Below are positions 32,454-52,180 of a DNA stretch of 64,000 nt, piece after piece. The first letter of the stretch is position 1. The number at the start of each line of letters is the position of its first letter. The position numbers and the translations under genes are program-made. Source of the DNA: Schizochytrium sp. TIO01 (taxonomy: Eukaryota; Protista; Bigyra: Labyrinthulomycetes); contig SMSO01000014.1 of the NCBI GenBank assembly GCA_004764695.1, positions 3,219,648 through 3,283,647 on the forward strand. Reading direction: 5' to 3'. Below the pieces are notes generated by a model that made no database searches, was not told where the DNA came from, and saw only the letters and a list, made by a program, of their open reading frames with translations.

Positions 32454-35445
32454 ATGATCCGGTGTTTGCTTTTGGTTTTGATTGTTGGATTTGTTGATGC
32501 GAGCACTTATAGCAATGGTGTGACTACAGATACAATTCGAGCGGTCAGAATTATACCCAACAGCAGCTACTCTTCATTGGTTCCGAGTGATGAGATCATG
32601 GCCGATATAGGCAGCGATTTGAGTACGTTCTATTACTCAAGTTCTGGTGGTAGTTTTGATGTTCACTTATCGGTTGATGAGACTACCTATGTGATGGAAT
32701 CTTTTAGCATTGATGAATCAGATAATTGTTACATCAATGGAGTAGAGGTGACTTCGAGTAGCATGCTTGTTTATGAAGAAGCGTTTGCTCTCGCGGAAGA
32801 TAGTGCAAATGCGTCTACATATGACTCTGTTGCTCTGTTCACCCCTTATTGTAACCTGGGGTATGTTGGAGTTGCTTATGTTGTTGGTTCTCGGTTACAT
32901 ATGAACGTTGCTGCAAGTTCAGTGAATTCAACCGCTTATCTCATGGGAGTTTTAGCGCATGAGTTTGGTCACAATCTTGGTTTGCTGCATGCTCATGCTA
33001 TTGATGGAGAATATGGTAATGAATATGATGAGATGGGTTCAAAGGCTGTTAGCTCAATTTAGTACCTACTACAAGTACTTTTGGAGGTGGATTCCGGAAG
33101 AGAGTATTTTGCAAATGTCACATGGTTTGTATTGCGAAGCAGACGAGTCTTGTGTAAGTGATGATACAACTGTGTGGCTCTATGCTCACGATACAGGAGA
33201 GGGGTTTAATTCATCTCTGTACTACTGTATTTTTTATCGGTTGGAGTATCCAAATACATACATGACGTTGGAATTCCGATCACTCTATGAGAGTGATCTT
33301 CCAGGCGTGATGATGGAATGGGTAACAAGGCGTTATGAAGATATTGCAGGTCCTAGTTACTTGATCGATCCAACTGGCTTGCCCAGATTGGTGACTGATA
33401 CAACTGGAGCTGCTTTTGTCCCTGTAAATTCTACCTATGTGTATGATTATCGCGAGGGAGGAAATGCAGTTGCGGTGACTGTCTTAGAACTTGATGAGGA
33501 TACTCAGCGCGTGAAAGTCAGAGTAAGGCATATGAATAAAAGTGCCAATGATGCAGATGAATTTGAGAATGAACTGCAAAATTTGGCTTCTATTTCTTGT
33601 GGCGACACAGTGAATTTTACAGAAGCGGTGGGGCGTACATTGTTTCATTTGGAAACTCCCAACCCTTCAAAGGTTTCTTTGAATGTAACTTGTGGTGGCT
33701 ACCTAGACGCTTACATTTTTGGAGGCAAACCATTTCATCTATTCAGTGATAGTCAAGGAGAATTTAACCTTGCCACATTTAATTCGACTAGCTTGTATGA
33801 TTGGAATCGGGCATTTGATGTTTCCGGTGTTGAACACTGTTCTGCGGATGCTTGCAATGTTGCTTTAACGGTTTCTCCATTTCTACGTTATGCGGGCGAG
33901 ATGATCTTTTATGCTGTTCCTGGAGTCTCAAGTGGACCCGCTGGGACTGTTTATGTGAATGACCAATATGAAGTGTACCTTAAATCAGTGTACATGGGGT
34001 ACTATGGGATTTATTATTATTGCTGGGTCTTTTACACCAGCTTGGCATGCGGTTCGTTTTACGGATTGATCGGTTCGAACACACTCATTTATCTATCCGA
34101 ACTTACGGAGGACGATATTGCTTTTACTAATCCTATTACCACCAGCTCTTCGCGAAGTTGGACGTCCGCGTGCAGTTCTGAAAGCCGGGCTGCAGATTTA
34201 CAAAATGCTTATGCATACCTTACCCGATACTTTACTGAAAATTTTGAGGTACGCACCTTTGCAAATGACAGTACCTATCTTCTCATTATGGGCGGCATAG
34301 ATGGTGCTACTGCGGAAGTTGTTTGTGATGTGATTTACTGTGGTAGTAATATGTTCATGAATGAATCGAGTGGTCTTTGCGAACCATGTGGTCAAGGTAT
34401 GATGTCGGAACCGAACAGCACTAGCTGTGTTGTGGATTGTTCTTATCTAATGCTGGAATCTCCATACGTGAGTTCAACTGGAGTGATGAAAACGACGGGT
34501 AAATATGTAGATTTAAAGGATTCTTGGGAGTTATATTCTAATGGTGGACGGGATACGAGTTATTTACTATACTTCCTTAATACTCAGGGGTGGGTTCTTG
34601 GGACTGGTTCTGTTGCTTCTGCAGCCTATTCTTATGAGGTGAGTGCGAGCAATTACCGACATCCAGTGCTCGGTGAATCTGGAGTTGAATCTGGATATTC
34701 CTTGACATGTATGTGTGCAGATTTCCCTTATTGTGGAGAATGTGATGGTCTTGGCGATGGTGCAATGGTAAGTCCTCTCGGTGGTACCTCTTGTTTTGTT
34801 CCGTACGAATTTATCTACGTAACATCTAGTGAAAATCATAGTATAGCAGGGAATTATAGCTTCAGCACTATGACAGATGGTTATCCAGTTTTTAGCTCTG
34901 CGAATTATACTCTGACTCGTGATTACTCTGTTGAGTGGTCGTTCGTTGCTCTTGTTAACTCTTCGATTGTGGCCACGAAGTCGGAAAGTATTAGCGTTTT
35001 TTGGCCAACGAATATTAGCAGTACAACGGCGTGGTCAACTGGTTATCTTTCTATTGCTCCACAAGAGAACTCTCTTGTCATGCAGGACATCTATTCTTCA
35101 ACATTTTTTGCTATAACTCCTGCACCAACATCGTCACCTACTATGCCGACGCCTTTACCAACATCGTCACCTACAGTTTCACCCACGGCTCCAACTCCTG
35201 CACCAACAATGAGACCTACGCTTGGAAATCCTTCTTCAGCACCTACGATTTCAGATGATACTAGTCTTTCTTACTTAAAGGAACTGTTTGAACAAATTGG
35301 TTCAAATCATATTTATCTAGGTCTCACAGTCGGTGCACTTTCTTTGCTCTGTTTTATGGTGATTTATCGTTTTGTTTATTATAATAGGTCTCATCAGATT
35401 GCAACACAGTATAATTTCGCGAATCAAATTGATGACTTTTCATAA
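32454..35445 (+). pseudogene. M11 (gametolysin)-like metzincin type-I membrane metalloprotease, split by one frameshift near 33050
   Basis: ORF1 has a signal peptide, HEFGHNLGLLH zinc motif and Met-turn YGNEYDEMG. ORF2 continues AQFSTYYKYFWRWIP (typical post-Met-turn FxxxxKxxxxWI), then a Cys-rich CxxC module, a PTxxPT mucin stalk, a TM helix (IYLGLTVGALSLLCFMVIY) and a short tail. Could be a real lesion or a sequencing indel. Confidence 0.8.
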
Positions 35446-35469
35446 ATGTTTTATTTTTAATTGAGGTTT

Positions 35470-37617
35470 TCATTTTGGAGTTGTTCTTTCCCTCTCCAAC
35501 GCAAGTCGAAGTCTAGCAATCTCTCGACTAGAGCTTAGTGCGAAGTCTTCCTCACTCATTTCTGACTTGCCAACGGACATGCCGAAGTCGATGATGACAG
35601 GCCTTTGAGTTTCCTTGTTGTATAGGATATTACGGGTCGCCACATCACCATGCAGTACACCATGGGAGTGAATGTCATCGAGAGCATCCACTGCCTTTTC
35701 CACAAAGTCATCGGTGATGTCTTCAGGTCTTAAAGGTTCGCCAGAATACTTTGTTCCGAGGCCGTAAAGAAATCTTTCATCGAAAACGCCACAATCGATG
35801 AACACTGGGATGTGTATTCCTTGCAGCGGTTCTAATTGCTTGTAAATTTCAGCTTCATTGTCAAGTTCGTGCATCTGATCTGCTTGCTTAACAAGGTCCA
35901 ATACCTTCACCACGTTGTCGCTCTTATCATCTCCTGCTTCGTGGAAGTTCAAACGAAATACTGCCCCTGTGCGACCGGGTGAAAGCGCGGTGCACCCAGC
36001 CTTGCGTAGCTTGACTAGTTCGACCGCTTCACCATCCTTTGTATATTTTGCACCATACTTATTTAGTGTCGAAGAAGGTGGTCGTCCATTTGGTGACGAA
36101 GTCCGTGGTGATACATTTTTCGGCCTCTTTGGGTCCTGTACGCTATCACATTCACGTGGTAGATCTTTCCTACTAATCGAATCATCCGATTTGCAGGGAA
36201 CCATCATAGAATTTCCATAACCTCGGAAATCCATAACTTGTTCATCAGCAGCGAGAAGAATAGCGAGTGCAACGAGCTGCAACGTACTGATTTTCTTATT
36301 TTCAGTATCACCCTCTTGATCCCATAAAATAGCTTCCGTGATAAGCAGATGTCCCCGCCCGTCTCTAATGAAAACATGAGTGTGTATATAGTTCGTGTAA
36401 ATACCAACCAAAACCTCATTCAAAACCATGTAGTTGTAAAGTTGACGAATGACCGAATGGTCTTCATGCCGCTGTGAACCACAGAGAGGATTTAGGCATT
36501 CTTTATTACAATAATCATTAGCGAGTTTAGCAGTGGTGGGAAACCCAGGACCTTTGAATTCGCCCATGATCAACGGTTTGCGGTTACCGTCTTCTGACTT
36601 ACAATTGATAGCAAAGTCTGCGCGACCTACTAGTCCTCCAGTCACAAGGTTTCCATACAAAGAGAGATCTTTAGGAATGGAATTGTTTTCAGTGGACGTC
36701 TGATTGAGTGCATGTGTTAGACATAGGATGGCATTTGTAAACGCTTTATCGACTGAACTTTCATTGTTAAGTTTTGCGTAGAGACCATAATTTGCAAATG
36801 TATTGCCAAAGTCGACTGTAGTCTCGACGTTATTCAGGATATTAATGTAGCCATGGTCTTCACAATAATCCCAGAAATTTGATGGAGAAAAATTATCCGC
36901 CTGCAAGGGTGATACAGGGTATGATATTAAGTTCGCAAGACTTGTCTTGTTTGCGGTTAATTCACCCTCCTGTTCCCAGTTTGGTAGATGTACTTTGGTG
37001 GCATCCATCATCTTCTTCGGTTCCGGAGATGACTGTAACCGTTCTCTTAGCGTTGAGATGTCTTCATCGGTAGAGGTTATAAGATCATGCACTTTTGCAA
37101 GGCGTTGTTCTTTGGCAACAATGTCTTGCTTGGTCACTTCTAACGACTTTTCCTTTTGGAGAATTTTTTTGGACAAATTCACGCAAAGGGCAAGAGTATC
37201 GTCCTGTATATCATCGGGCGAGTACCCGTACCTCCTCTGGAACGATTTTGACTTGATCTCACCACGACAGAAAGCATCGAGAAAGTCGTAGTCGTCCTCA
37301 TTTCCTAGCTTTTCTTTAAGTTTTTTCTCGATTTGCTCGATTTCTTGCGAAAGCTTGGCTTTTTCATCCTTGAGGTCCTCAAGTGCTCGATCCATACGCT
37401 TGTACTCCTCAATCTTTTCTGCATTCAAAGTTAAAGACCGTTGCAAGAGGGATTCATCATCTCTTGGGAGTGTGCTTACGCGCCTGAAAGTGGTGCGTCT
37501 GTTTGGATTGTTTGTGAACATCTGAATTGATGAGGGGCGAGATTCACGTCTACTAGCGGCACTCCTTGCGAAATTGGAGGCTGCATTTTTTAACCCCTTG
37601 ATAGTAGCACCTATCAT
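35470..37617 (-). CDS. Coiled-coil header + PD-(D/E)xK restriction-endonuclease-like domain + minimal protein kinase (Crinkler/CR-effector-like), copy 1
   Basis: REase-like: NESSV, GRADF, IMGEFKGP, VIRQLYNYMVLN..GIYTNY. Kinase: SPGRTGAVF, VVKVLD, NEAEIYKQL..LQGIHIP, LHGDVATRNILY, IIDFG. Confidence 0.85.
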   Translation of the reverse strand: MIGATIKGLKNAASNFARSAASRRESRPSSIQMFTNNPNRRTTFRRVSTLPRDDESLLQRSLTLNAEKIEEYKRMDRALEDLKDEKAKLSQEIEQIEKKLKEKLGNEDDYDFLDAFCRGEIKSKSFQRRYGYSPDDIQDDTLALCVNLSKKILQKEKSLEVTKQDIVAKEQRLAKVHDLITSTDEDISTLRERLQSSPEPKKMMDATKVHLPNWEQEGELTANKTSLANLISYPVSPLQADNFSPSNFWDYCEDHGYINILNNVETTVDFGNTFANYGLYAKLNNESSVDKAFTNAILCLTHALNQTSTENNSIPKDLSLYGNLVTGGLVGRADFAINCKSEDGNRKPLIMGEFKGPGFPTTAKLANDYCNKECLNPLCGSQRHEDHSVIRQLYNYMVLNEVLVGIYTNYIHTHVFIRDGRGHLLITEAILWDQEGDTENKKISTLQLVALAILLAADEQVMDFRGYGNSMMVPCKSDDSISRKDLPRECDSVQDPKRPKNVSPRTSSPNGRPPSSTLNKYGAKYTKDGEAVELVKLRKAGCTALSPGRTGAVFRLNFHEAGDDKSDNVVKVLDLVKQADQMHELDNEAEIYKQLEPLQGIHIPVFIDCGVFDERFLYGLGTKYSGEPLRPEDITDDFVEKAVDALDDIHSHGVLHGDVATRNILYNKETQRPVIIDFGMSVGKSEMSEEDFALSSSREIARLRLALERERTTPK

Positions 37618-38075
37618 GGTGTTCGAACGATTTTTGAGGTGTTCGAACGATTGGGTTTTGCTGCTCTTGAGAACTAGGTTTGGATGCTTCCTCTATTGTT
37701 TATACTTGATTTACTAATGAATGGTACTAGTAGATATTCTTACTTATTTATTTGTTTCTTACACACAAACCCATGTCTTCTTCTACACTGCACGAGGGAT
37801 AAATTATAAAACAACCTCTGAATATCATTACGATCTATATAGGTGAAATAATATGCTAAGTATTCTTTTTTTAAAATTACTAGCTAGTATTTTGCGAAAC
37901 CCATAATAATCCGCGAATTAAAGTCTGCAGTGCTCGTTTGCATAACTTTGATGCCGTGGCTGGTGGCGTGGCCGCAGCGTCCACGAATCTATTTCTCTCC
38001 TCGCACGCGCCGTATGCCGTGTGCGCGCACGCACACGCGCTCATTCTACCCATCTCTCCCTCCACTGTTCGATCA

Positions 38076-38550
38076 CGCAAGTCAAACGTTGTGATGATTC
38101 GATGCAAGTGGGTAAGATCGATGCCCCCGCTCGCCAAGGCCAAGGACAACTTTCCATGCATCGTTTGACTGCGTAAGTCGAAAGTTGTGCAGGTTGTGCT
38201 GGCTCGTGCCGGTAGGTAGGAGAAGAGAAGATCGGTCATCGACCTTGATCAAGCGTAAGTCGCGAGTTGTGCAGGCAGTGCTAAGCAGGAGAGGAGAATT
38301 GAAGATCGGCCCTCTCAGTAGCCCTTGATCGATCGTTTGATTGAGTTGTGCAGGCAGTGTTGTTTGAGACTTGAAGAACGATCCTCTGACTCGCCAGTGG
38401 TAGAGGTTTGACTACTTATCTTTCGATCGCCTAAGTCGAGAGTTGTGCAGTTTGTGGGATGAGAGAAGATCGATAGATAGATACCCTCCCTCGCTCACTA
38501 ACTCTCAGTAGACCTTGATCATTAGATCGCGTAAGTCAAAAGTTGTGCAG
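38076..38550. repeat. Degenerate iterated array, core CGTAAGTCRNRAGTTGTGCAG about every 80-100 bp (6 units)
   Basis: Cores at 38076, 38172, 38254, 38343 (partial), 38430 and 38530. Sub-motifs GAGAAGATCG and CTCTCAGTAGACCTTGATC recur between them. A more eroded equivalent lies at ~49820-50197. Confidence 0.8.
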
Positions 38551-38629
38551 AGGGGTAAAGAAGAAAGGGAGACATCATGGGACGAGTTGATGAACCAAAA
38601 TTTGACATTCAGAAACTAACTTTGACAAG

Positions 38630-39395
38630 ATGGATCAGTCGGTTCAAGATTCGATTTATCGAATTTACCTAGTAAAAGCGATAAAGCGCCTGATTTGATT
38701 TATAACATTGTTACTTTCATTGAAGGTGTAGAACCAGTATATACGCCAGACGGATTGCCGACACACAATTTCTTAAAATGTGCTTTGGAATTTGCTCTAC
38801 AGTACAAACCCCGCTACATTGATTGTGTCAACGAACTTGTGGATCTGGAGGGCTTTACCTTTTGGTTATCTGAACAGAACGCATCAGAGCTTTCTACTCG
38901 CGGAGTGATTCTTTTGAAACTGGTTCTGGTAATCAAAAGATAAAAACATTGAAAGTCTGGGGAAGTTGAGGACGGAGATGTCTAAACTGTTCATGGAGGT
39001 TGATTTTCCTTCTGGGATAATTAAGAATGTACAACTGCGTGAGGTTCCTAATTATGTTGCGGAGCGCTTCTTGCGCAATGTATTTCCATCAACTACGGAC
39101 TACCGACGCCATTATTTATACCACGAATAAACCTTTCTACCGATTCAAAAGAACCTTCTGTCAGAGGGGACATCACATACTCTAAGTCGGTGTCAAAAGT
39201 CGGCAAACGATACGGTCTTTCAAGGGTCCCGGTGGATCTGGCAAGACCCGTCTAGGTGTTGAGCTGGCAAAACATGGAGTGAACTATGTCGATGAAGATA
39301 AAAAGAAAGCTTTATCTGCGTTTATTCAGATGAATAAACACCTTTGTTTAGACTCCTCGTACTTTCGTCAAGAATATAAATTCGGGGCTCGATGA
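38630..39395 (+). pseudogene. Fragmented hypothetical ORF
   Basis: Protein-like segments in shifting frames (MDQSVQDSIYRIYLVKAIK / YNIVTFIEG...FWLSEQNASEL / MSKLFMEVDF...YRRHYLYHE / LAKHGVNYVDEDKKKALSAFIQMN) separated by frameshifts and stops. Confidence 0.45.
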
Positions 39396-39624
39396 ACAAT
39401 GTCCGTCCTGGTTGTTTGGGCGTATGCTCTCTATTTTCGGACTCCATGGATGGTGCGTTTTCTCCTGCGTATCGCTTTTTGACTAAACTTGCTTTCCTTT
39501 CCCACGTTCCTTTCTTTTTTTCTTTTTCCCCTTCAGTTCCTGTTGCTTGTCAATCTTAAAAAAAAATAAAATAAAAATGTTTGTTGCTTTTTCATGGTCA
39601 AATGAACATTCTTTTTCTTTTTTA

Positions 39625-39804
39625 TTCCTAATCATTAGAATGATTATTTTTTGACTTTTTCATGTTCATTTTTTTTTTAATTCTCAATCAAATAACATTT
39701 TTTTTTTTAAATACCCAATCATTAGAATGAAAATAGCATTCTTTTTTTATTTATTCCCAATCATTAGAATGAGAATAGCATTCTTTTTTTAAATTCCCAA
39801 TCAT
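39625..39804. repeat. ~42-bp tandem repeat containing the inverted repeat TCATT-AG-AATGA
   Basis: CC(C/T)AATCATTAGAATGA at ~39627, ~39714 and ~39756, with partial copies at ~39681 and ~39796, each followed by T-runs. Lies just downstream of the RuvC stop. Confidence 0.85.
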
Positions 39805-39813
39805 GTTTTTGTT

Positions 39814-40425
39814 TTAATTGAGAATGTCTTGCTCTGCCAGAGCATATTTTGCAAAAGGGTTGACTTCCTTCACAAGTACGATGGTGGGTAATATTGTTTG
39901 CGCATAGAACATGATATATGCCATGGCGTCACCGAGGTGGTCTTTTTGAACTGCTTTTCTGAAGGCTGGTAAAGTGTGTAAAAGTTTTGAAGTGATTTCC
40001 ACGACCTGTACGCGCCTTTCAACTTTAGATTGTGACATTTTAAAATATGCATGCATGGAGCGTGGTGAGATCAATTGGACAAAAGATGATCCTTTCCTTG
40101 CCCCAAATCTCTGCTTTAGGAAAACATGAAGAAGCTGTTCAATGTCTTTGTGAGTACTTGTGATGGGCTGCGCTTCGATGATGACTTGATCTACTTTTTG
40201 AAACCATGGTCGGAGCAGCTCCACAAAATGGTGAACGAGATGTGCGCCTTTGCGATCCTTTTCTTCGAAAGGGCATTCTTTGGGTTTTTTACATGTAAGA
40301 TTGCGAAGGTCTTGCATGTGCGCATAGACGGGCGTGATTTCAAACGTTTCATTGTCAATGTCTGCAAACGCACAGGCAAGATGGCTGAATCCCACATCTA
40401 TTCCAACGACTCGAGTAAGGTTCAT
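39814..40425 (-). CDS. Holliday junction resolvase, poxvirus A22/RuvC-like
   Basis: VVGIDVGFSHLA, VIIEAQP, LISPRSMH and KDHLGDA give the RuvC D-E-D-D active site with the viral A22-type ExQP signature. Confidence 0.88.
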   Translation of the reverse strand: MNLTRVVGIDVGFSHLACAFADIDNETFEITPVYAHMQDLRNLTCKKPKECPFEEKDRKGAHLVHHFVELLRPWFQKVDQVIIEAQPITSTHKDIEQLLHVFLKQRFGARKGSSFVQLISPRSMHAYFKMSQSKVERRVQVVEITSKLLHTLPAFRKAVQKDHLGDAMAYIMFYAQTILPTIVLVKEVNPFAKYALAEQDILN

Positions 40426-40762
40426 GTTTACTATTTTTTATTTTTATTTTTTTATAAAAATGATAATTTCGTTTATGTTATATTACTACAACGGTAGCCG
40501 AGGGCGTTTTTGTGGCTTTTTCCTTTTTAAGAAAGATGTGTGCGAGGATGAATAAAATCAGTATAAAGAACAATAGAATCGCCAAACCACCTCTGTCTAA
40601 GCCTAAAGATATTGCATTCTCCCTGAATGTGGAGTTCGTAATGTTCGACATGTAAATGTGATAAACAAACTACTAGGATTAGCGTTGATAATCTATTTAT
40701 TGCAAAATCTTCAATAACTAAACCCTTAATAGTGTGAGATTATAAAATAAAAAAGCTATATC

Positions 40763-41779
40763 ATGAGATTGAGGAGTAGTCGCGTTTATGTAGTAGATGA
40801 AACTTTAAAAAAACAATCTAAAAGAAATGAAGTAGTAGTGCATGTCAATAATGCTAAGACTAGAGAACATGTATTAGATGAAACTTTAAAAAAACAATCT
40901 AAAAGAAATGAAGTAGTAGTGCATGGCAATAATGAACATGTAGTAGATGAAACTTTAAAAAAACAATCTAAAAGAAAGAAAAGAAATAAAGTGGTAGATC
41001 CTGTTATTCGTGTATGTGGCAACGCTAAGACTATTTATAAATGTTCTCTGAGTGGTAGGGAATATTGGGTGGATAAGAACCGAGCTGGAGAAAACAGAAG
41101 AATGTATTGTGGGCATGGACGAAAACCTAACCGGTGTGTAGATTGCGATGGCACGTATATTTGTATCCACAAGAGGCGCCGTACTTACTGCTTTATTTGT
41201 GAGCCTGATTCCAAAAACCTTTGCGAACGTAAGTGTGGGCGTCTTTTATCGAATCGTAGACTTTTCCGTAGGATTCGCATTTGTTGGACGTGTGAAAAGA
41301 GAGAGGAGCGTCATATGAGACTAGAAAATGAGTGGAACGAGCGTTTTCATTCTTGGGGATTTCACCCTTCGAGCCATGATCGCATCATCAAAGATAGTGC
41401 ATGTAAGGTAGTAAACCGTCGGCGTGCTGACTTTGTTTTTTCAGATAATGACTTACCCTATTATATTGTGGTCGAATGCGATGAAGAAAGTCACAGTGGT
41501 TATGACATAGCATGTGAAATGAAAAGATTGCAGGAAATTCATGATCAGTTAATTGGTAATGGAAGAAGTGTGAAGCCTTTGGTGATTATCCGTTTCAACC
41601 CGAACTCTCGACATGAAAGCCTGGAAAAGGAAGTTAAAGGAGCCCTAGAAGATGCACTCAAAGGGCAAGTGGACTACTCTGATGCGCGTGGAGTCAATTT
41701 ATTTAAAGTGATAGGTTATGGACAAACGCGGCAAGAAAAATACAGAGAGGAGCGTCTTACCTATCGCTTAAAAATTTGA
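40763..41779 (+). CDS. Zn-ribbon repeat + PD-(D/E)xK-like endonuclease (giant-virus type)
   Basis: N-terminal MRLRSSR and three tandem V(V/L)DETLKKQSKR repeats, then CGHGRKPNRCVDCDGTYICIHKRRRTYCFIC, then RRADFVF..IVVECDEESH..Y..CEMKRL..IIRFNP. Confidence 0.78.
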   Translation: MRLRSSRVYVVDETLKKQSKRNEVVVHVNNAKTREHVLDETLKKQSKRNEVVVHGNNEHVVDETLKKQSKRKKRNKVVDPVIRVCGNAKTIYKCSLSGREYWVDKNRAGENRRMYCGHGRKPNRCVDCDGTYICIHKRRRTYCFICEPDSKNLCERKCGRLLSNRRLFRRIRICWTCEKREERHMRLENEWNERFHSWGFHPSSHDRIIKDSACKVVNRRRADFVFSDNDLPYYIVVECDEESHSGYDIACEMKRLQEIHDQLIGNGRSVKPLVIIRFNPNSRHESLEKEVKGALEDALKGQVDYSDARGVNLFKVIGYGQTRQEKYREERLTYRLKI

Positions 41780-42493
41780 CTCGATTCCACCAAAGCATAT
41801 CCACACTAAAAGCAACTTGGAGGTCAGTGACAAAAGGTTGTACCATCCATCCATAGTAAGCACTTCCTCGTCAGTTAACATGCGTTCTTCCCTCACCACA
41901 TAGATATACTGTACTAACGCAAAGCATGAAAACATGAAGAATTCAATGAAAAAAATAGCAATGACAAAGTGTGGTACGTCATGGTTGATTTCTGCAAAGA
42001 AAGACCAACTGATAATAACCCATGCGAAAAGGTAAGGAATGCAACCGAGCCAGAATGGTTTGATCATCAATCTCGATTTATCACCTGTAAAAGGGAGGAT
42101 GTCTTCTAGATACCCAAAGACCATTGTTGTCATCATGAGACCGGCAATGCCTGTGAGAGTGAAAATGTCATCTATTCTGCATAAGATTGCAATAATGACG
42201 GCCATGATCGATGCAGTGATGGAGTACTCTAAAAAGCGCATGGAGCCGATGTTTCCAATGCGAATAAGATATGCGTAGAAGCAGTGAAACGCGGCCGTAA
42301 TTCCTGAAAAGAGGGCAAGTCCGCTGAAGACTGAAGGCGTCCACCATGTGGTATCTATGTCACCTAATGTTAAGACCACTCTCCCTTTGTTTGGATCCAC
42401 TGAGAGAACAACCATAGCAATGGTAGACGCAAGGTGCAAAAGTGCACAAACAATGTTGAACTGCCATGTTGAACAATAGGAAATGATACTCAT
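41768..42493 (-). CDS. Heliorhodopsin
   Basis: Seven hydrophobic helices. His20 (ALLHL), His70 (AAFHC), RFLEYSITASIM (R86, counterion E89), MVFGYLE, PFWLG..W, VPHFV..F.F..FALVQ and YNLLSLTSK226LLLVW (retinal Lys) match the heliorhodopsin signature. Confidence 0.93.
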   Translation of the reverse strand: MSIISYCSTWQFNIVCALLHLASTIAMVVLSVDPNKGRVVLTLGDIDTTWWTPSVFSGLALFSGITAAFHCFYAYLIRIGNIGSMRFLEYSITASIMAVIIAILCRIDDIFTLTGIAGLMMTTMVFGYLEDILPFTGDKSRLMIKPFWLGCIPYLFAWVIISWSFFAEINHDVPHFVIAIFFIEFFMFSCFALVQYIYVVREERMLTDEEVLTMDGWYNLLSLTSKLLLVWICFGGIESNF

Positions 42494-42554
42494 AGACTAG
42501 TCATTATATGTATAAAGTGAATCTGAATTATAATAATAGTAGCTGGCTTACATC

Positions 42555-45500
42555 ATGTCGGACGCGGTTTACGAGGATGTGCTTAGGCGGGCAGTTCGTC
42601 TAAGAGATGAAAACCCACAGTTCAAGCGTCAACTCAATCGAATCATTCTCCACATAACCAACAGTATGTCGTATGCAGAGGTTCTTGAACAGAATGCGAA
42701 ACTAGATGAATTTGATCATCAGGTTGAAGATGGTACGAATGAAGGTAGTAAAACCGTGCAGGATGCTGAAAATACGCTACCTGAGTCTCCACAATTGCTT
42801 GCTCAAACATCAGGGGACGGGAAAAAGAGAGGACGGTCGATTGTCAAAAAGGAGGATAAAGAGTTGAACGCTTCGCTCACAAGAGAATCAGAGCAATACT
42901 TGAAGGAATTGTTAACCACAAAGGGTTTTCATAAGCTAAAATCTTTCGGTCCAGCTATGTTGGAGTGTTTTGGATTCGATGATGGCAACTATTTGGGTTA
43001 TTCTTCGGCGGATGCGAGGGTCTATGAGATTGTTCATATCCTCGAGGATATCATCAATAAAACAAGTCCTGATCAAGAACATGTTTCGATTCATATTGAA
43101 ACTAATATTACTTATCACGTTACAACTCAAAGATTTCATAACTTGGACGACACTGTCAATTTTATTTACAACATTCTTGTAGAAGATCCGGATGAGGCTA
43201 GATACTATTCGTTACCAATTGTTCTAGATAATTTTGAAGATGATTCAAGTGAGGAAGATGATCAAGAAGAAGATGACCTCCATGCAAATCTTTTAATTTT
43301 AGATTTAAAAGAGCATTCTGTCATTCATTTTGAACCACACGGGAGGGGAACACGGCTGTATGATGTTGAAGTGTTCACAGCAAGGATGAGGGAATTAGTT
43401 GAAAGGTCATTTAGGAAGTTCAATAAACAAGAGAAAACAAAGTACTTTCTGTTGGATGTGGGGTCAGGGTCTGAAGCAGAAGAGAATTCAGAGAAAGATG
43501 GGATTCCCTGGAGATTTCTTACAAACTTAAGTCAATCATTCGGCCGTATCGGTCCTCAATCAAGTTCAGGGCGTTGGTACCGCCAGAATGTTAACTTACG
43601 CGTTACGAAAAGAACATCTGATCTTGAGACTCTTTGGACGCAAAGACTCACAGACGGATTCTGTTTCGCGTGGTGTTTGCTAGTTACCTATGTGGTCTTG
43701 GCTCCAGTTGATTATACTGATGCTAAATCCAAAGTAGGATTCAAAGGAGAATTTGGGGAGGCCTCTGCTGATGGAACCACTTTGCGTGACAGGTTTGACA
43801 TCACTGCCGAAAGTTTTGATCCTACTCTTCTTTTCGATCGATTTGTGAATTTCCACAATTGCTCAGGCGAATTTATGGGACAGACCATGCTGCGCTTTGC
43901 AAGTTTTATCGCTAAATGTGATAAAACTCTCATTCGGGAACTGGCTATCTTTGGCGATCAGATAGAAATTGACGAGGGTGACTCGAGGACATTATCTGAA
44001 GAACTCATCCCCGTGCGACTAACTTCACTAATGAGTCCTTACTTTGAGCATGTTGAAATTTTATCGACGAGAATTTCCATGACTCCTGGAAATATTGTCA
44101 TCCCTCCAAATGTAATCAATCTATTGTCTCATCATGCAGACAGTGGCGATTCAAGCAATTCTCCAGGGTCCTTGTCTGGTTATGCACAAATGGTCATCGT
44201 AATCGTTCAACGGGACAACGCTTTATTGTATTTGATGCTTTCACCGCGAAAGAGGCAGTACTGTATTCAATTCACTTCCGATAGTCTCTTACAGCGCATT
44301 CCTATCGATGAAAGTCTTGATCGAGAAATTGAAAACTATGGTAAGGGTACATGGAAGAAACAATTATTAAATACGAAACAATTGGTTCCGACGAGTTCAA
44401 TGGTTGATGGCTTTGCGCTGAATTATGAATCCTCGACATTAAGCACTCTTGAACGTCAGTTTCTTACCATACTATTGCAAGTTTGGTTGTTTTGTGTTGT
44501 TCACATTTTGAATCCTCAAGTCGATGGGGGGGACTTATTCGAAATGGTCAAGTTGAAAGATGCAATTTTAGATGATTCTGATTTTGCGGTAGTCAAGTTT
44601 AAATTGATTCGAAAAGATGCTCAAAATAGGCGCTTAAATTGGACAAAGCTAGCCTTGCTCAATAGGTTCAGACTTTACCTTTTGGACGGTCTTGAGCTGG
44701 AATATTGGCAGTCCATAAAGCGTTACTCAATCGATATCATTCCTGAATCTTATAAAGAAGCGATCGATGAATCCTTGAATAGTAGCGAATTTATAGAGGA
44801 GCTTGATGGAGAAATCATCCCAACAATCCTATCTCAGTTGGACACTGAAGATCCTGAAGACATGCAATGGTTAAGCTCAATGACTAAACTAAGGGATTTG
44901 GGGATTATGTACAAATTATGTGAAGGTTATTCAGAAGTTAATGAGAATAATGCCGATGAAGTGCTCGCTCTGTTTGATCAGATTCTGAATTATAAGTACA
45001 TGAAAGTGCAGGAGGTCATTCCCAAATTACTCAACAATCTAGATAACGAGGCAATTCGATCAATGGACGAATCATCAGTGTCGTCTAGTGTTTACTTTAA
45101 AGTTGTGGTCCATTATCTAAAGGTTTTCATGCCCGGTGCTCCTTTGGATACCATCACTGGCTTGATCTTGTGCGCTTCACTTTTGAAACATATTCCTCAT
45201 TTTTGGATGATTGTTGCAAAATCCTACATGGAATGCATTGACATGGTATCCACTAATGATTTTACCAATGGCTTCGAGCAATTGTGTATTGCGAGTCAAA
45301 TGACCATTTCTTTGAAAATGTTCCCCCGTAAGACTTTCATCATGAAAAAGGTGAATTTCAGAACCTTTAGAAAAATGTTTGACGAATCTATTCAACAGAA
45401 GGAGGTGATACAATTTCAAGAAATCTTCCAGTCATTGGAAGCGGATTTGGAACCGTTATCATGGGTGATGAAACAAGTACCACCTGAGCAATTTCCTGAT

Positions 45501-47141
45501 GTGATCTTGGCAATTTTTGACAATGATAGCATTCCTCCATCTAGCAAGTCTACTTTATTCGGTCTTAGAGGTATAACATCTAGCATGGTTTACGATGCCA
45601 TTCTTAAGCAGGCAGATAAGGTTGCGGATTTTTCAAGGAAGTTCTTCAACTTGGAATATGGTACTCACTTCTTCAGAGACAACGAAAGGTCAGCTAAATT
45701 TTTCTTGTTGGAACTCATAGATGCTTATCCTAACATGTATCTTCCATACTTTACTACACATGATATGTTTAGGAGTATCATGACTGCTGAATCGCTCTCT
45801 TTTAATGAAAAGCTAATGGATATAGAGAGGATCAGTAATATCATCGACATATTTTACACATACAAGGAAATTTTGAATTCAGCCAACTCATCAATTGATG
45901 ATCTTATTTCTAAATTAGACGGTAGCACTTTTGATAGGTTGATCCTCCTGCATGGACTAAGAAAATTTAAAACGTATGATGACGGCGATCGTGCAGATCT
46001 AATACACAATCTACCAAACTTATTAAAGGGTGATTATTTTATGTTGTCTTTGCAGCGCGAATTGGCTCGTCGACTAAATCTTCTAAGGAACGAACCTTTT
46101 CTCGGTACCGAGATTGCTTCAACGGATCATCACTCATATCGCTATGATGTTCTTCCGCACTTTCACTCTTTGCCTGAGCAGAAGAATATGCACAAAAGAA
46201 TATCGCACCTGTACTTAAGAGAACAAACAGAACATTCATACACAGCTCCTCACAAAGATCCTGATTCACGAAGTAGAGGATCAGTAGGAGAAAGGGGATT
46301 TCAATCAAAGGAAGGAGTAGAAGAAGAGGAAGGGTCAGAAGAAGGGTTGGAAAAGACAGTGCAGGGTAAAGCATATAGAGATGAATACAGAAAAGTAAAC
46401 AATAAACAAAAAGGTACAAACAAAGGCCCTGTGTTAGACTTAGACGTGATTGTTGAGCAGAACTATCCGCCATCTTTATTCAAAAGGATTCAGAAGGATA
46501 TTTATCGATGGAATTTGATACTTCGTGTAGCTGATGGAGAAGATTTTTTAAATAATAATGAGTCTCTTGTTGAAAGCGATTTGGATGAATCATCAGATGA
46601 AGAAGAACAACCGTTTGACCACGCCATTGCAAATCGTAGTACTTTATTTTTGAGTGAAAATGAGGGGCATCATTCTGCAGAATCTCAAGAAGAAGAGGAT
46701 TCTGAAGAAGAAGAAGAGGATTCTGAAGAAGAATCTGAAGAAGAAGAGGATTCTGAAGAAGAAGAGGATTCACAAGAAGAAGAGGATTCACAAGAAGAAT
46801 CTGAAGAAGAAGAGGATTCTGAAGAAGAAGAGGATTCACAAGAAGAAGAGGATTCTGAAGAAGAAGAGGATTCTGAAGAAGAATCTGAAGAAGAAGAAGA
46901 TTCACAAGAAGAAGAATCTGAAGAAGAGGAGGATTCACAAGAAGAAGAATCTGAAGAAGAAGAGGATTCACAAGAAGAAGAATCTGAAGAAGAGGAGGAT
47001 TCACAAGAAGAAGAATCTGAAGAAGAAGAGGATTCACAAGAAGAAGAATCTGAAGAAGAGGAGGATTCACAAGAAGAAGAATCTGAAGAAGAAGAGGATT
47101 CACAAGAAGAAGAATCTGAAGAGGATTCCCACGAAGAATAA
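42555..47141 (+). CDS. Large hypothetical protein (1528 aa) with N-terminal cysteine-protease-like motif set and acidic repeat tail
   Basis: HANLLILD..IHFEPHG..GPQ..DGFCFAWC places His, Glu, Gln and Cys in clan-CE order. The C-terminal ~150 aa is E/D/S/Q repeats. Confidence 0.8.
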   Translation: MSDAVYEDVLRRAVRLRDENPQFKRQLNRIILHITNSMSYAEVLEQNAKLDEFDHQVEDGTNEGSKTVQDAENTLPESPQLLAQTSGDGKKRGRSIVKKEDKELNASLTRESEQYLKELLTTKGFHKLKSFGPAMLECFGFDDGNYLGYSSADARVYEIVHILEDIINKTSPDQEHVSIHIETNITYHVTTQRFHNLDDTVNFIYNILVEDPDEARYYSLPIVLDNFEDDSSEEDDQEEDDLHANLLILDLKEHSVIHFEPHGRGTRLYDVEVFTARMRELVERSFRKFNKQEKTKYFLLDVGSGSEAEENSEKDGIPWRFLTNLSQSFGRIGPQSSSGRWYRQNVNLRVTKRTSDLETLWTQRLTDGFCFAWCLLVTYVVLAPVDYTDAKSKVGFKGEFGEASADGTTLRDRFDITAESFDPTLLFDRFVNFHNCSGEFMGQTMLRFASFIAKCDKTLIRELAIFGDQIEIDEGDSRTLSEELIPVRLTSLMSPYFEHVEILSTRISMTPGNIVIPPNVINLLSHHADSGDSSNSPGSLSGYAQMVIVIVQRDNALLYLMLSPRKRQYCIQFTSDSLLQRIPIDESLDREIENYGKGTWKKQLLNTKQLVPTSSMVDGFALNYESSTLSTLERQFLTILLQVWLFCVVHILNPQVDGGDLFEMVKLKDAILDDSDFAVVKFKLIRKDAQNRRLNWTKLALLNRFRLYLLDGLELEYWQSIKRYSIDIIPESYKEAIDESLNSSEFIEELDGEIIPTILSQLDTEDPEDMQWLSSMTKLRDLGIMYKLCEGYSEVNENNADEVLALFDQILNYKYMKVQEVIPKLLNNLDNEAIRSMDESSVSSSVYFKVVVHYLKVFMPGAPLDTITGLILCASLLKHIPHFWMIVAKSYMECIDMVSTNDFTNGFEQLCIASQMTISLKMFPRKTFIMKKVNFRTFRKMFDESIQQKEVIQFQEIFQSLEADLEPLSWVMKQVPPEQFPDVILAIFDNDSIPPSSKSTLFGLRGITSSMVYDAILKQADKVADFSRKFFNLEYGTHFFRDNERSAKFFLLELIDAYPNMYLPYFTTHDMFRSIMTAESLSFNEKLMDIERISNIIDIFYTYKEILNSANSSIDDLISKLDGSTFDRLILLHGLRKFKTYDDGDRADLIHNLPNLLKGDYFMLSLQRELARRLNLLRNEPFLGTEIASTDHHSYRYDVLPHFHSLPEQKNMHKRISHLYLREQTEHSYTAPHKDPDSRSRGSVGERGFQSKEGVEEEEGSEEGLEKTVQGKAYRDEYRKVNNKQKGTNKGPVLDLDVIVEQNYPPSLFKRIQKDIYRWNLILRVADGEDFLNNNESLVESDLDESSDEEEQPFDHAIANRSTLFLSENEGHHSAESQEEEDSEEEEEDSEEESEEEEDSEEEEDSQEEEDSQEESEEEEDSEEEEDSQEEEDSEEEEDSEEESEEEEDSQEEESEEEEDSQEEESEEEEDSQEEESEEEEDSQEEESEEEEDSQEEESEEEEDSQEEESEEEEDSQEEESEEDSHEE
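46680..47138 (+). repeat. Coding tandem repeat (21-33 bp units, GAAGAAGAGGATTC...) encoding EEEEDSQEEES
   Basis: Directly visible. A regular 33-bp unit appears in the 3' half. Confidence 0.95.
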
Positions 47142-47215
47142 TTTAAAGAAGAGAATCATAGTATAATTTCGTAAATGATAACTTTTCCTTTTTTAAAGAA
47201 GAAATACAACAACTG

Positions 47216-50197
47216 TAAATGTTTTAGTTTTTTACTCCTCTTACTTTGCCCAACGAATGTCGAAGTTCATTAATCTCTTGATCGGCAGCTCTTGCGAAGT
47301 ATTCATCACTCATTTCCATCTTGCGAACGGCTATGCCGAAGTCAACTATGACAGGCCTTTGAGTTTCCTTATTGTATAGGACATTGCGGGCATCCACATC
47401 ACCGTGCAATACACCTTGGGAATGAATTTCATCGAGAGCAATCACTGCCTTTTCCACAAAGTCATCAGTGATGTCTTCAGGTGTTAAAGGTTCGCCAGAA
47501 TATTTTGTCCCAAGACCGTACAGAACATCGCATTCAAAAAGGCCATAATCGATAAATTCAGGGATGTGTTCGCCTTGTAGCGATTTTAACTGTTTGTAAA
47601 TTTCAGCTTCATTTTCAAGCTCTGGTATCTGTTCTTCTTGCTTAAAGCAATCCAGTATCTTCAAAACGCTGTCGATCTTCTCACCTGTTGGTAGGGGGAT
47701 ACCAATCCGAAGTGTCCTACCCGTGCGACCGGGTGGGAGTTCAGTGTACCCATCAAGTTTTAATAAAGGTAAATGAATCGACGCCCCATCTTTGCGGAAA
47801 TGTTTAGGGTCCTCGGAATTTTGATTTTCGTGCTTCTCTATCTTCGCGTCATTACTGGCTTTACACACTGCAGGTAGAACGACGCGTTCTGGAGTCTGCC
47901 CCGGGCCGCCTAAACAGGGAACCAAGATGCTATTTTCAATTTCACTGAAGTTCATCTCGCTTGTATCCGCTGCGAGCAAGATAGCAAGTGCGATAAGTTG
48001 CATCGAACTGAGTTTGCCGCGAGCGATATCACCAACATCTTCAGCCCGAACAGACTTTGTGATCATTAGATTTCCTTCACAGTCCCTGATAAGAACACAA
48101 GTCACTTTGTAGTTCGAGTAGACGCCAACCAGTAGACCATTCAAAAACATGTAGTTGTATAGTTGACGAACAACTGAATGCTTTTTATGACGGTCTGAAT
48201 CACATCCAGGACAGTCATGATCACAATAAGTCTCACTGAGGTTGTCGTAGGAGTACTTCTCACCAGGACCTTTCAACTCACCTACGATCAACGGAATATG
48301 GGTACCATCTACTGTCTTAGCAGCAAAAGAAAAGTCTGCTTTACCCTCTATTCCTTTCGGGTCAGCCGTATAGATGGAGACCTCATAAGGGACTTTTTCG
48401 TTGGATTCTTCGGTCATGGCTTCTGTTACAAGAAACATAACCTGATCAAATGCTGTCGTGACAGTTGCTTCGTTTGAGAATGTTTTTTTATTACTCATCC
48501 TTTCAAAGACATCTTCGAAGTTGACGGTAGATTGCAGTTCATTCAGAATATCAATGTACCCTTTCTCGTTACTGTAGTGCACGAAAGACTCCACTAACAA
48601 AGGTCTGACCTTCGCAGGCGAAGCGGGGTAATTTTCGAGGTTCGAGATATCTGTCTTGCTTGTTCGTATTTTGGGTGAATCCTGAACATTTGGTAGACGA
48701 TGACTGGTGACCGACAGAAAATTTTGCGGTTCCGTACGAGAAATCAAATCACTTAACCTCCTCACTTCAGCTTGGTGATCATCGATTATGTCCTGCGTTT
48801 TTGCAAGGCGTTGTTCTTTGGCAAGAATTTGTTGCTCTTTCACTTCTAACGACTTTTCTTTTTCGATAATTTTTTTGGACAAATTCACGCAAAGGGCAAG
48901 AGTAGCGTCCTGTATATCATCGGGCGAGTACCCGTACCTCTCCTGGAACGATTTTGACTTGATCTCACCACGACAGAAAGCATCGAGAAAGTCGTAGTCG
49001 TCCTCATTTCCTAGCTTTTCTTTAATTTTCTTCTCGATTTGCTTGATTTCTTGCAAAAGTTCGTCTTTTTCAGCCTCGAGGTCCTCAATTTTTCGATCCA
49101 TACGCTTGTACTCCTCAGCCTTTTCTGCATGCAAAGTTCTAGCGTCGGCCAAGAGGGAAGCTAATTCCTGATTCAAGACTACGTGTTTCATAGGAGTGGG
49201 TCTGTCTGAATCGGTTGTGAACATCTGAATTGATGAGAGGCGGGGTTCTCGTCTTCTAGCGGCACTCCTTGTCTGGTTGGTGATCTTGGAGGCTGCATTT
49301 TTTAATCCCTTGATAGTAGCACCTATCATGGTGTTCGAACGATTTTTGAGGTGTTCGAACGATTGGGTTTTGCTGCTCTTGAGAACTAGGTTTGGATGCT
49401 TCCTCTATTGTTTATACTTGATTTACTAATGAATGGTACTAGTAGATATTCTTACTTATTTATTTGTTTCTTACACACCCTCAAATCAAACCCATGTCTT
49501 CTTCTAATGACTCATACACTGCACGAGGGATAAACTATAAAACAAGCTCTGAATATCATTACGATCTATATAGGTGCAATAGTATGCTAAGTATTCTTTA
49601 AAAAAAAATTACTACTCAAGAATAAAATGTAGTTATCTTTCATAGTGCTAGTATTTTGCGAAACCCATAATCCGCGAATTAAAGTCTGCTTTGTTGCATA
49701 ACTTTGATGCCGTGGCTGGTGGCGTGGCCGTGGCGTCTACGAATCTATTTCTCTCCTCGCACGCGCCGTATGCCGTGTGTGCGCACGCACACGCGCTCAT
49801 TCCACCCATCTCTCCCTCCACGCAAGTCAAACGTTGTGATGAATCGATGCAAGTGGGTAAGATCGATACCCTCGCTCGCCAAGGCCAAGGACAACTTTCC
49901 ATGCATCGTTTGATTGCGTAAGTCGAAGGTTGTGCTGGCTCGTGCCGGTAGGTAGGAGAAGAGAAGATCGGTCCTCTCAGTAGACCTTGATCAAGCGATT
50001 TGTGCAGGCAGTGCTAGGCAGGAGAGGACAATTGAAGATCGGTCGTTTGATTGAGCAGTGTTGTGTAAAAGAACGATTTTCGCCAGTGGTAGAGGTTTGA
50101 CTACTCATCTTTTGATCACCTAAGTTGAGAGTAGTTGTGCAGTTATAGAAAGATGGATACCCTCGCTCACCAAGGACAACCTTTGATCAATCGTTTG
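47216..50197 (-). repeat. Duplicated ~3 kb REase-kinase cassette, copy 2
   Basis: 49320-49477 matches 37608-37765 essentially base for base. 48801-49040 closely matches 37096-37335. Upstream GC-rich and iterated motifs are shared. Confidence 0.92.
47224..49329 (-). CDS. Coiled-coil header + PD-(D/E)xK REase-like domain + minimal protein kinase (Crinkler/CR-effector-like), copy 2
   Basis: NEATV, GKADF, IVGELKGP, VVRQLYNYMFLN..GVYSNY; PPGRTGRTL, VLKILD, NEAEIYKQL, LHGDVDARNVLY, IVDFG. Paralogue of 35470-37617. Confidence 0.85.
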   Translation of the reverse strand: MIGATIKGLKNAASKITNQTRSAARRREPRLSSIQMFTTDSDRPTPMKHVVLNQELASLLADARTLHAEKAEEYKRMDRKIEDLEAEKDELLQEIKQIEKKIKEKLGNEDDYDFLDAFCRGEIKSKSFQERYGYSPDDIQDATLALCVNLSKKIIEKEKSLEVKEQQILAKEQRLAKTQDIIDDHQAEVRRLSDLISRTEPQNFLSVTSHRLPNVQDSPKIRTSKTDISNLENYPASPAKVRPLLVESFVHYSNEKGYIDILNELQSTVNFEDVFERMSNKKTFSNEATVTTAFDQVMFLVTEAMTEESNEKVPYEVSIYTADPKGIEGKADFSFAAKTVDGTHIPLIVGELKGPGEKYSYDNLSETYCDHDCPGCDSDRHKKHSVVRQLYNYMFLNGLLVGVYSNYKVTCVLIRDCEGNLMITKSVRAEDVGDIARGKLSSMQLIALAILLAADTSEMNFSEIENSILVPCLGGPGQTPERVVLPAVCKASNDAKIEKHENQNSEDPKHFRKDGASIHLPLLKLDGYTELPPGRTGRTLRIGIPLPTGEKIDSVLKILDCFKQEEQIPELENEAEIYKQLKSLQGEHIPEFIDYGLFECDVLYGLGTKYSGEPLTPEDITDDFVEKAVIALDEIHSQGVLHGDVDARNVLYNKETQRPVIVDFGIAVRKMEMSDEYFARAADQEINELRHSLGKVRGVKN

Positions 50198-50216
50198 TTT
50201 TATTTCAAAAGCTGTA

Positions 50217-51176
50217 CTATTCAGAGTTTATATTCATGAGTCCTCTACCAAACGCACACTGATTCGGTGCTTCTTTTTGAAGCTTATATCTATACTTTAC
50301 ATAATAATCAATGTCATTCCAACACTCAGGCTCCACTGTGCTCATAAGTAGGTACTCTTGAATGTCAGAAGCCCAGGGCGGGATGTCCAAAACATGTGAG
50401 ACAATAAAGGCTCTCTGTGTGATATCTTTCATTTTAATTTTATCCCTTAGCCATCTGTCAAATCCGTGCTTGTCACCAGTCTTTAGTATGCCATATGCAA
50501 AATTTCTCAGACCTGATACGGAATCAAAATGCCCCTTTTCACACATTAAATTAGCTCTCCAAGGTCCAACATATCTGATACAAGTGAGACACTCATCTAC
50601 AATCGTTTCTTCGTTCTCAAGATCATCAAGTTCCTTAAGCAGATCGCGCTTCGGTGCAATCCATTCTTTATAGATGTTTTCCAAAGCGAGAACGTCTGCA
50701 TCAGCTCGGTGCGCATTCTCAATAGGTTTGCCAAACATGACCTCATGAACATCCCCCAATCTAAATGATTTCATATTGGGGTAATTTTTCCTTAACCAAG
50801 GTAAAGAGTCCCAAAATTTAATTTGTTGAGGAACAACACCATTCAACTCTTTGAGGAGAATTAATTGATCAAAATATGTGTTATTGTGAGCAATCATTTC
50901 CACATAATCGAAATCCTCGACGTGGAACTCTTTAAACATTTTAGCAACAACCTGTTCGATGGTGGGTGCATCTTTGATGTCTTGGTCATGAATGTTGTGA
51001 ATCAATGAAGAATTAGGAGGAATTCCTCCCTTAAAACCGGGATTGACGAATGATATAAAAATGGGTCCATCTACAATTTTTGCGCATATTTGTAGAATTT
51101 TATGATTTTTACTAAACATTGGCATGTTCCGAAAACCGGTCGTTTCCAAATCGTATATAATATGAAGAACTTTCAT
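50217..51176 (-). CDS. DEDDh 3'-5' exonuclease (DNA Pol III epsilon-like) with C-terminal helix-hairpin-helix-like segment
   Basis: ExoI IIYDLETTG, ExoII IAHNNTYFD, ExoIII AHRADADV, and CIRYVGPWRA. Likely start is ATG 51176 (MKVLHIIYDLE), not the GTG at 51437. Confidence 0.9.
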   Translation of the reverse strand: MKVLHIIYDLETTGFRNMPMFSKNHKILQICAKIVDGPIFISFVNPGFKGGIPPNSSLIHNIHDQDIKDAPTIEQVVAKMFKEFHVEDFDYVEMIAHNNTYFDQLILLKELNGVVPQQIKFWDSLPWLRKNYPNMKSFRLGDVHEVMFGKPIENAHRADADVLALENIYKEWIAPKRDLLKELDDLENEETIVDECLTCIRYVGPWRANLMCEKGHFDSVSGLRNFAYGILKTGDKHGFDRWLRDKIKMKDITQRAFIVSHVLDIPPWASDIQEYLLMSTVEPECWNDIDYYVKYRYKLQKEAPNQCAFGRGLMNINSE

Positions 51177-51774: not shown

Positions 51775-52180
51775 TACTGATTCGCGTGAGGTTGACTGTA
51801 AAGATGAAGGCAAGAAGCTTGATGAAGGTTATAAGAAGGTTGATTTTAAGTGTTAGCGAACTACTGTCCTGGGGAATGAATTCCAGGACAGATGGATTCA
51901 TGTAGTAATTAGGGAGATTAAGACATTCTTGAATGTGGTTAGAGATAATCAATGGGGTCAGGTTATCCAACCTTCTCCAACCATCGATTCAAGCTAAACC
52001 AAGCTTGGGTGTCGGTAATGTGTATTCACACTTCTAGTTCTTGGCTTCAGCAGCCACATGAGTCTGGCTGCCTATTCTTGTTCTAATGTAAACCTTATTA
52101 CTATTGGGTTTTACAAAGGGACACCAAGAACTCTAGCAATGTCTTGTCCACTAGTTCCTTCGATTGGAGATCTCAGCATT
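51763..52180 (+). repeat. Interspersed ~420-bp repeat, copy A
   Basis: Reverse-complement match to 58591-58985 and direct, more diverged match to ~59064-59412. Internal hairpin CTGTCCTGG...CCAGGACAG at 51864-51891. Confidence 0.88.

Follow-up and report, generated by a model that had tools for sequence, protein, structure and literature searches.

An intact heliorhodopsin with a helix F glutamate in a decaying, probably mirusvirus-derived block of a protist chromosome

Introduction

Most heliorhodopsins, viral V2HeR2 included, are non-transporting (Mizutori 2025). The coccolithovirus protein V2HeR3 (Hososhima 2022, PMC9448325) does transport, and mutation of its helix F residue E191 to Gln abolishes the current. 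Although E191 has been called the hallmark of transporting heliorhodopsins, the same paper describes it as 'essential but not sufficient': EhHeR and McHeR carry the glutamate and do not transport, and W195 together with E/Q205 was concluded to be needed besides E191 (PMC9448325). This rule was drawn from ten tested proteins and, in addition, McHeR; no W195 mutant is reported in the passages of that paper used here, and the gate residues of VPS401HeR, EhHeR and McHeR are given below after its text rather than its Fig. 4C. The Micromonas gene for McHeR may itself derive from a mirusvirus (PMC10132985).

Heliorhodopsin genes were found in 64% of mirusvirus genomes vs 5% of nucleocytovirus genomes, and a resolvase and a 3' exonuclease are likewise mirusvirus core genes (PMC10132985). 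Papers often assume, by analogy with V2HeR3, that the mirusvirus core heliorhodopsin transports protons (PMC10132985 among them), and the listings and passages covered by our literature searches contained no functional test of a mirusvirus heliorhodopsin. Endogenised copies have precedents. The CHeCMEs of Cymbomonas tetramitiformis (PMC10675990) are endogenised fragments of putative mirusvirus origin that carry an intron-less heliorhodopsin and, sporadically, exonuclease and cysteine-peptidase genes. In the thraustochytrid Aurantiochytrium limacinum, mirusvirus DNA is present as CE1/AurliV-1 and LE-Chr15/AurliV-2, one element being integrated, with the heliorhodopsin on the episome CE1 (bioRxiv 2023.06.15.545109; PMC12606086).

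Here we describe a heliorhodopsin gene from Schizochytrium sp. TIO01, found in a stretch of 64,000 nucleotides that we refer to as the window. Its product resembles V2HeR3 in being a viral heliorhodopsin with a helix F gate glutamate, a carboxylate 11 residues before the retinal lysine (K-11) and a glutamate counter-ion in helix C, but it differs in having Phe for W195, Tyr for E205 and Asp for E215 (PMC9448325), Gly at the position of E236 (K+10), and a longer F-G loop. Moreover, V2HeR3 comes from a different virus group, whereas our gene resides in a host chromosome. By their description, EhHeR and McHeR are similar in combining a gate glutamate with an incomplete transporter set and in being host-encoded; unlike them, the window gene still lies within a block of viral genes. 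TaHeR and 48C12 share with it the fold (TM-score 0.74-0.79), a Phe at the W195 position and the retinal pocket, but where the window protein has its gate glutamate they carry Ile or Leu, and their residue at position 205 is Gln. With respect to its surroundings, the locus is a single, small, capsid-less block of roughly 10 kb amid host genes, in contrast to the 51 CHeCME scaffolds, which often bear HK97 capsid genes and belong to a different host group, and to the A. limacinum elements, which are near-complete genomes of 270-300 kb. To these precedents it adds an insertion of small size that is decaying and, it appears, polymorphic, and whose donor is unmatched to a described element. Our preferred reading, to which we assign a probability of about 0.6, is that an intact heliorhodopsin, a non-transporting light sensor, persists as a host passenger in a decaying, likely mirusvirus block of a protist chromosome.

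The window encodes an intact heliorhodopsin

The gene occupies positions 41768-42493 of the minus strand as a single open frame of 241 codons plus stop, with no intron, and an ORF check found the plus strand across the same interval closed to translation. Its product matched Pfam PF18761 (Heliorhodopsin) with E 1.1e-31 and 110.5 bits (cut-off 26.7), and scored 96.6 bits with NCBIfam HeR, a prokaryotic model, slightly below the cut-off of 100. All six matches in a PDB sequence search were heliorhodopsins, as were the best 10 Foldseek matches in the PDB for an AlphaFold model computed from a 17-sequence alignment (mean pLDDT 91.7), which displays seven long helices. Compared with the feature list of PMC13739731, the protein possesses the seven helices, the A/B beta-hairpin, a His in each of helices A and B, a Glu counter-ion in helix C, a Ser at K-4 (S222) and the retinal Lys in helix G (K226, codon 41816-41818). 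The retinal-pocket residues H20, H70, R86, E89, S222 and K226 are all present, and retinal binding and the inverted topology are predicted by homology.

The original prediction of an intact 241-residue heliorhodopsin was thus borne out by the open frame, the Pfam score and the structural matches, and H20, H70, R86, E89, E184, D215 and K226 each lie where it had placed them. It had also put Glu184 in the middle of helix F, in agreement with the model, in which this helix spans H175-200, and had remarked that Asp215 at K-11 replaces a usual Glu; this position holds Glu in 166 and Asp in 12 of the 188 collected heliorhodopsins that have the Lys.

Gate residues and the question of transport

The gate was mapped by way of TaHeR (6is6, whose chain numbering is native + 6) and an alignment with 48C12. 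From the conserved Pro onward, helix F aligns without gaps with both proteins, so that E184 (codon 41942-41944) corresponds to TaHeR I199, F188 (41930-41932) to F203, Y198 (41900-41902) to Q213 and 48C12 Q216, and D215 (41849-41851) to E227 and 48C12 E230, all codons being on the minus strand. These are the residues to which V2HeR3 E191, W195, E205 and E215 map in TaHeR, as do E205 and E215 in 48C12 (PMC9448325). The V2HeR3 mutagenesis primers in supplementary file 3 of that paper, which place a Trp at +4 and a Glu at +14 from E191, agree with this spacing. Equivalence of E184 with E191, on which the original prediction depended, therefore holds, and by homology E184 would face the protein interior.

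The prediction had gone on to propose that E184 may be a gate and the protein a candidate light-gated proton channel; that the glutamate makes such a channel likely finds no support. Since PMC9448325 requires W195 and E/Q205 in addition to the glutamate, which EhHeR and McHeR carry without transporting, the relevant observation is that the window protein has the Glu at E191 but neither the Trp at W195 (F188) nor a Glu or Gln at E205 (Y198). F188 and Y198 were absent from the prediction and bear directly on its interpretation. At the position of E215, Asp215 is still a carboxylate; the passages of PMC9448325 used here report no E215D test. An acidic F-G loop, also singled out earlier, is present with a net charge of -3, but it differs from the proton-accepting group of V2HeR3, which consists of E205 and E215 and of which E215 alone has a counterpart here, D215.

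We compared these positions across the family. Searches collected 197 heliorhodopsin sequences, and a tree was computed from 58 of the first 98 after removal of fragments shorter than 200 aa and loci more than 80% identical; the tree does not contain distant relatives such as V2HeR3. The window protein fell into a clade of 15 (support 100/98) with environmental sequences. Motifs could be scored in 193 of the 197 rows, and a second set of counts used the 188 rows with the Lys. As close relatives we took the 22 sequences of at least 36% identity that reach the Lys, with L013 counted once (it equals P0012) and the truncated L014 outside the set. Among these, position 184 is Glu in 18 and Gln in 4; position 188 is Phe in all 22; and position 198 is Tyr in 17, Phe in 3, Asn in 1 and Leu in 1, with Glu or Gln in none. 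Asp at K-11 occurs in six. The window protein alone has an F-G loop at net -3, indicating that the acidic loop is no family trait, and we rejected the loop as a proton acceptor on account of this lack of conservation. Over the 193 scorable rows, 36 have Glu at the gate and only two (L018 and P0100, one family outside the clade) combine it with Trp. To judge from these alignments, the gate glutamate is inherited rather than unique to the window protein, and is replaceable by Gln, the residue that silences V2HeR3; Gln thus occurs naturally in the clade although E191Q kills the V2HeR3 current. All 22 relatives nevertheless keep a polar residue at position 184, whereas prokaryotic heliorhodopsins are hydrophobic in this half of the protein; among the reasons to expect a function at that position, we regard this as the strongest. 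A degenerate pattern of the V2HeR3 helix F motif found 0 viral contigs, and P0001 had no match in phage records and, as a single query, none in viral contigs.

These counts bear on the strongest rival to our reading, namely that the protein is a light-gated proton transporter. In this view E184, holding a proton in the dark, would gate an inward proton path, and D215 would be the sole acceptor of the Schiff-base proton; transport would have arisen in the clade separately from the coccolithoviruses, using Phe and Tyr at the positions of their Trp and Glu. Its appeal lies in E184 aligning with the hallmark residue, retained by 18 of the 22 relatives; in E205 not being fully conserved among transporters; in VPS401HeR, only 35-41% identical to the others, also transporting; and in a viral origin, which fits the membrane-depolarising role proposed for such proteins (PMC9448325). 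We nonetheless consider it doubtful, as F188 and Y198 occupy the two other positions, both tested non-viral carriers of the E191 glutamate were negative (PMC9448325), four relatives have Gln at the gate, the acidic loop is unconserved, and both of the sequences that pair Glu with Trp belong to another clade. The broader proposition that the widespread mirusvirus-type clade (E-x3-F, Tyr, Glu/Asp) conducts protons via a gate evolved independently of V2HeR3 is in our estimation unlikely; if true, a copy in a culturable, genetically tractable protist would make light's role in mirusvirus infection testable.

Under the preferred reading of a non-transporting sensor, retinal would be bound to K226 with E89 as counter-ion. 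Upon illumination, the Schiff-base proton would move to a network on the cytoplasmic side, centred on D215 and the histidines, and come back by the same route; a proton that leaves and returns on this side is known from TaHeR and 48C12. Located one helical turn past F188 towards the extracellular side, E184 would constitute a buried polar site that tunes the photocycle, opening no path because F188 keeps a hydrophobic seal, a role in which Gln would serve in 4 of the 22 relatives. The protein may have served the virus in the light-dependent timing of infection. Since the window protein has the gate glutamate alone, it can show whether an E191-type Glu suffices or whether the actual switch consists of W195 and E/Q205. 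We see its use as a test case of the mirusvirus-type clade and a fair patch-clamp target.

Separately, a heliorhodopsin-like protein at L018:131-1069 (family of P0100, P0181 and P0182) has Glu, Trp and Gln at the V2HeR3 helix F positions, the sole family among the 193 rows to do so. The histidines of its helices A and B are replaced and its K-11 residue is Thr; on sequence grounds this family is a better transport candidate than the window protein.

Viral neighbours of the gene and signs of decay

Viral genes, roughly 10 kb of them, were found between 38.5 and 51.8 kb of the window, in a block flanked by host genes (ubiquitin hydrolase, Mpv17, a split metallopeptidase and Med31). The left edge of the first repeat unit described below is spanned (34500-36101) by an 11,387-nt contig from the DNA run X1. 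With host genes on both sides and this contig crossing the left edge, placement of the gene in a host chromosome, as claimed originally, stands. The metallopeptidase gene, of M11/M12 type (32454-35445), occupies two overlapping frames of 202 and 828 aa, the split being a frameshift or an assembly error.

To the left of the heliorhodopsin are a broken gene that runs over several frames and has a P-loop motif (38578-39480, plus strand), a RuvC-like Holliday junction resolvase of 203 aa (39814-40425, minus strand; phrog_159, E 2.6e-8), and a 338-aa ORF with Cys/His clusters (40763-41779, plus strand), whose stop overlaps that of the heliorhodopsin. The 338-aa ORF matched DUF2726 weakly (E 0.014) and is likely a viral endonuclease, to judge by a motif recognised by eye. 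To the right, and divergent from the heliorhodopsin, is a 1528-aa ORF with an acidic repeat tail (42555-47141, plus strand). Profile searches returned no family match for it; paired His and Cys motifs around residues 260 and 370, again seen by eye, suggest a cysteine protease. Its acidic tandem tail differs in size in run X19. The block continues with a DEDDh exonuclease of 319 aa (50217-51176, minus strand) and the 5' remnant of a membrane-protein gene (51331-51774, plus strand), cut off by the interspersed repeat of about 420 bp (51763-52179, no strand assigned) that ends the block. This repeat has an inverted copy at 58591-58985; related inverted copies lie within 58591-59418, and many run contigs end at repeat borders.

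Two kinase-gene units, one before and one inside the viral block, bracket most of it. Unit 1 (35470-38550, minus strand) consists of a 715-aa kinase-domain gene and a repeat-rich upstream region with plus-strand splice donors; unit 2 (47224-50190, minus strand) has a 701-aa kinase-domain gene and the same upstream region, the two units sharing 82% identity across 1.4 kb. The unit may be a mobile element that carried or rearranged the block. Its nuclease-plus-kinase layout presumably resembles that of Crinkler-type genes. Further diverged copies of the unit are present in sequencing runs.

The GC content of the block is 38.8-39.2%, compared with 42.7-45.0% outside (left flank 45%), while the heliorhodopsin GC3 of 0.48 is not distinct from that of host genes. 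An Rfam scan of 30000-60000 found no match. Four other viral ORFs near the heliorhodopsin are likewise intact, so that its own intactness is not special. The preferred reading accordingly holds that the gene would have entered the chromosome together with its neighbours, would still be intact mainly because the insertion is young, and would be carried passively in the host.

Origin of the block

The viral origin that had been claimed for the gene gains support from its viral neighbours (resolvase and exonuclease) and from the environmental contig L014, in which the window arrangement recurs: L014 carries the exonuclease (minus strand) and the membrane-protein gene (plus strand), 47% and 39% identical to their window counterparts and divergent from each other as in the window, with a heliorhodopsin of the clade 1.3 kb away. 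For four heliorhodopsin/exonuclease pairs, the longest contigs were of equal size (15950, 25201, 6501 and 169466), which suggests linkage of the two genes. The heliorhodopsins of L013 and L015 each have as neighbour an ORF that is 39% identical between the two contigs. In Atlas this ORF was placed close to prohead serine proteases and to hypothetical proteins of viruses (0.94-0.95), the first row being an unrelated family. The ORF had no Pfam, PHROG or PDB match, and its single-sequence fold reached a pLDDT of 30; we treat it as a putative capsid maturation (prohead) protease, a lead. Beside the heliorhodopsin of L015 there is also a TnpB/Cas12f-like ORF (L015:1571-2323; PF07282, E 4.3e-5, slightly below the cut-off).

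Heliorhodopsin, resolvase and 3' exonuclease, which belong to the mirusvirus core accessory genes and are not exclusive to mirusviruses, are all present in the block. This gene set, together with the prohead-protease-like ORF beside the heliorhodopsin of L013 and L015, fits a donor from Mirusviricota, and we consider a mirusvirus donor quite probable. Scans of the window ORFs for HK97-fold capsid, terminase, portal and maturation protease genes found none, although divergent genes could escape them, and a two-sequence profile of the L013/L015 protease gave no match among the window ORFs; missing virion genes are expected for a small mirusvirus fragment. Neither the exonuclease nor the L013 ORF had a close match among viral contigs, alignment matches of the exonuclease reaching only 23-34%. 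The exonuclease relatives P0031, P0039 and P0048 are on contigs of 169-313 kb. The sole named eukaryotic homolog of the window exonuclease is from Hondaea fermentalgiana.

The donor might instead have been an SmDNAV-type nucleocytovirus ('Skiavirales'/'Ariadnavirales') or some other giant virus infecting the same host, an alternative that bears on origin alone and leaves the question of function untouched. SmDNAV encodes a heliorhodopsin (BCU09291) and, under the next accession number, a kinase; kinases move between SmDNAV-type viruses, mirusviruses and thraustochytrid hosts; and resolvases are common to mirusviruses and nucleocytoviruses (PMC10132985). Weighing against such a donor, the closest relatives of the window gene adjoin the prohead-protease-like gene, which as a lead would represent a Duplodnaviria trait, SmDNAV-type viruses have lost most replication genes, and no named nucleocytovirus protein is among the close matches of the window proteins. 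An origin of this kind is thus unlikely, and a mirusvirus remains our preferred donor.

Presence in sequencing runs and RNA cover

Of the 24 listed runs, 14 hold at least half of the words of 39500-44000, in seven studies, one of which is possibly the source of this DNA. Contigs were mapped for six of the 24 runs: X15, X17, X19 and X20, which we took to be putative RNA since none of the runs is recorded as RNA, and the DNA runs X1 and X5. An RNA status of X15 and X17 is supported by GT..AG joints that neither DNA run contains and, in X15, by a poly-A end. Contigs cover the heliorhodopsin in X15 (41261-42536), X17 (41573-42462) and X20 (41261-42204). That of X15 includes the whole ORF, with a synonymous change at codon 83, also present in X17 and X1, as its sole difference. 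The X17 contig carries a 5-nt insertion at codon 212, a frameshift before K226; this was seen in one contig of one run and is absent from X1 and from X5, which is under the same organism label.

The gene-covering contigs of X15, X17 and X20 all enter via a joint of 38306 to 41261. We rejected this joint as an intron: its ends are non-canonical on either strand and it is present in the DNA run X1. For the same reasons we regard it as a rearranged second copy, which sets the gene directly downstream, in plus-strand sense, of a region from which plus-strand RNA originates that is spliced and polyadenylated. Plus-strand splice donors lie in the repeat region at 38254 and 38530, and X17 contains plus-strand GT..AG introns at 41402-41487 and 41402-41497 (start about 41402), inside the gene-side cover. 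In X19 the joint is absent and there is almost no cover over the gene, the absence of contigs being a weak indicator. Taken together, the simplest reading is that the RNA over the heliorhodopsin is antisense read-through, as these observations suggest; the contigs carry no strand information, and the X15 contig end at 42536, slightly upstream of the ATG, also fits a heliorhodopsin start site. Spliced, polyadenylated plus-strand contigs were also seen over 38200-39594. Beginning within the repeat region, they extend across the broken P-loop gene and have the appearance of non-coding RNA transcribed from viral debris.

The final claim of the original prediction, that the virus delivered a light-responsive proton conductance to the host, is further weakened because the RNA looks antisense and because labyrinthulomycetes have light-gated anion channels of their own. 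Domestication of the gene as the host's own photoreceptor, transporting or not, would fit the spread of the block over 14 runs and seven studies and the cover of the whole ORF in X15 with one synonymous difference; thraustochytrids, to which the host likely belongs, moreover make beta-carotene and have a carotenoid oxygenase gene, so that retinal could be at hand. We judge domestication improbable: small strain differences are block-wide and the neighbours equally intact, so that the gene is not singled out; the RNA bears the signs of antisense read-through and one copy is frameshifted; and, as lesser points, the putative RNA run X19, without the joint, has almost no cover, and records of the protein come from Logan assemblies alone, while MMETSP and EukProt contain one of the window's host genes. 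The passenger reading, in which the copy is simply carried along, remains preferred.

Several further contigs bear on the architecture of the locus. The resolvase and endonuclease regions, 39812-40703 and 41158-41507, have diverged second copies (~92% identical) in X17, X19 and X5, which indicates related viral fragments elsewhere in those genomes. A joint of 34378 to 51791 in X19 was rejected as an empty site because 51791 falls within the interspersed repeat. The depth of X5 over the block is about half that of the left flank, which could mean that one allele carries it, although contig depth does not equal copy number. At position 35448, directly after the stop of the metallopeptidase-like gene, an X5 contig leaves the window sequence, possibly representing an allele without the insertion.
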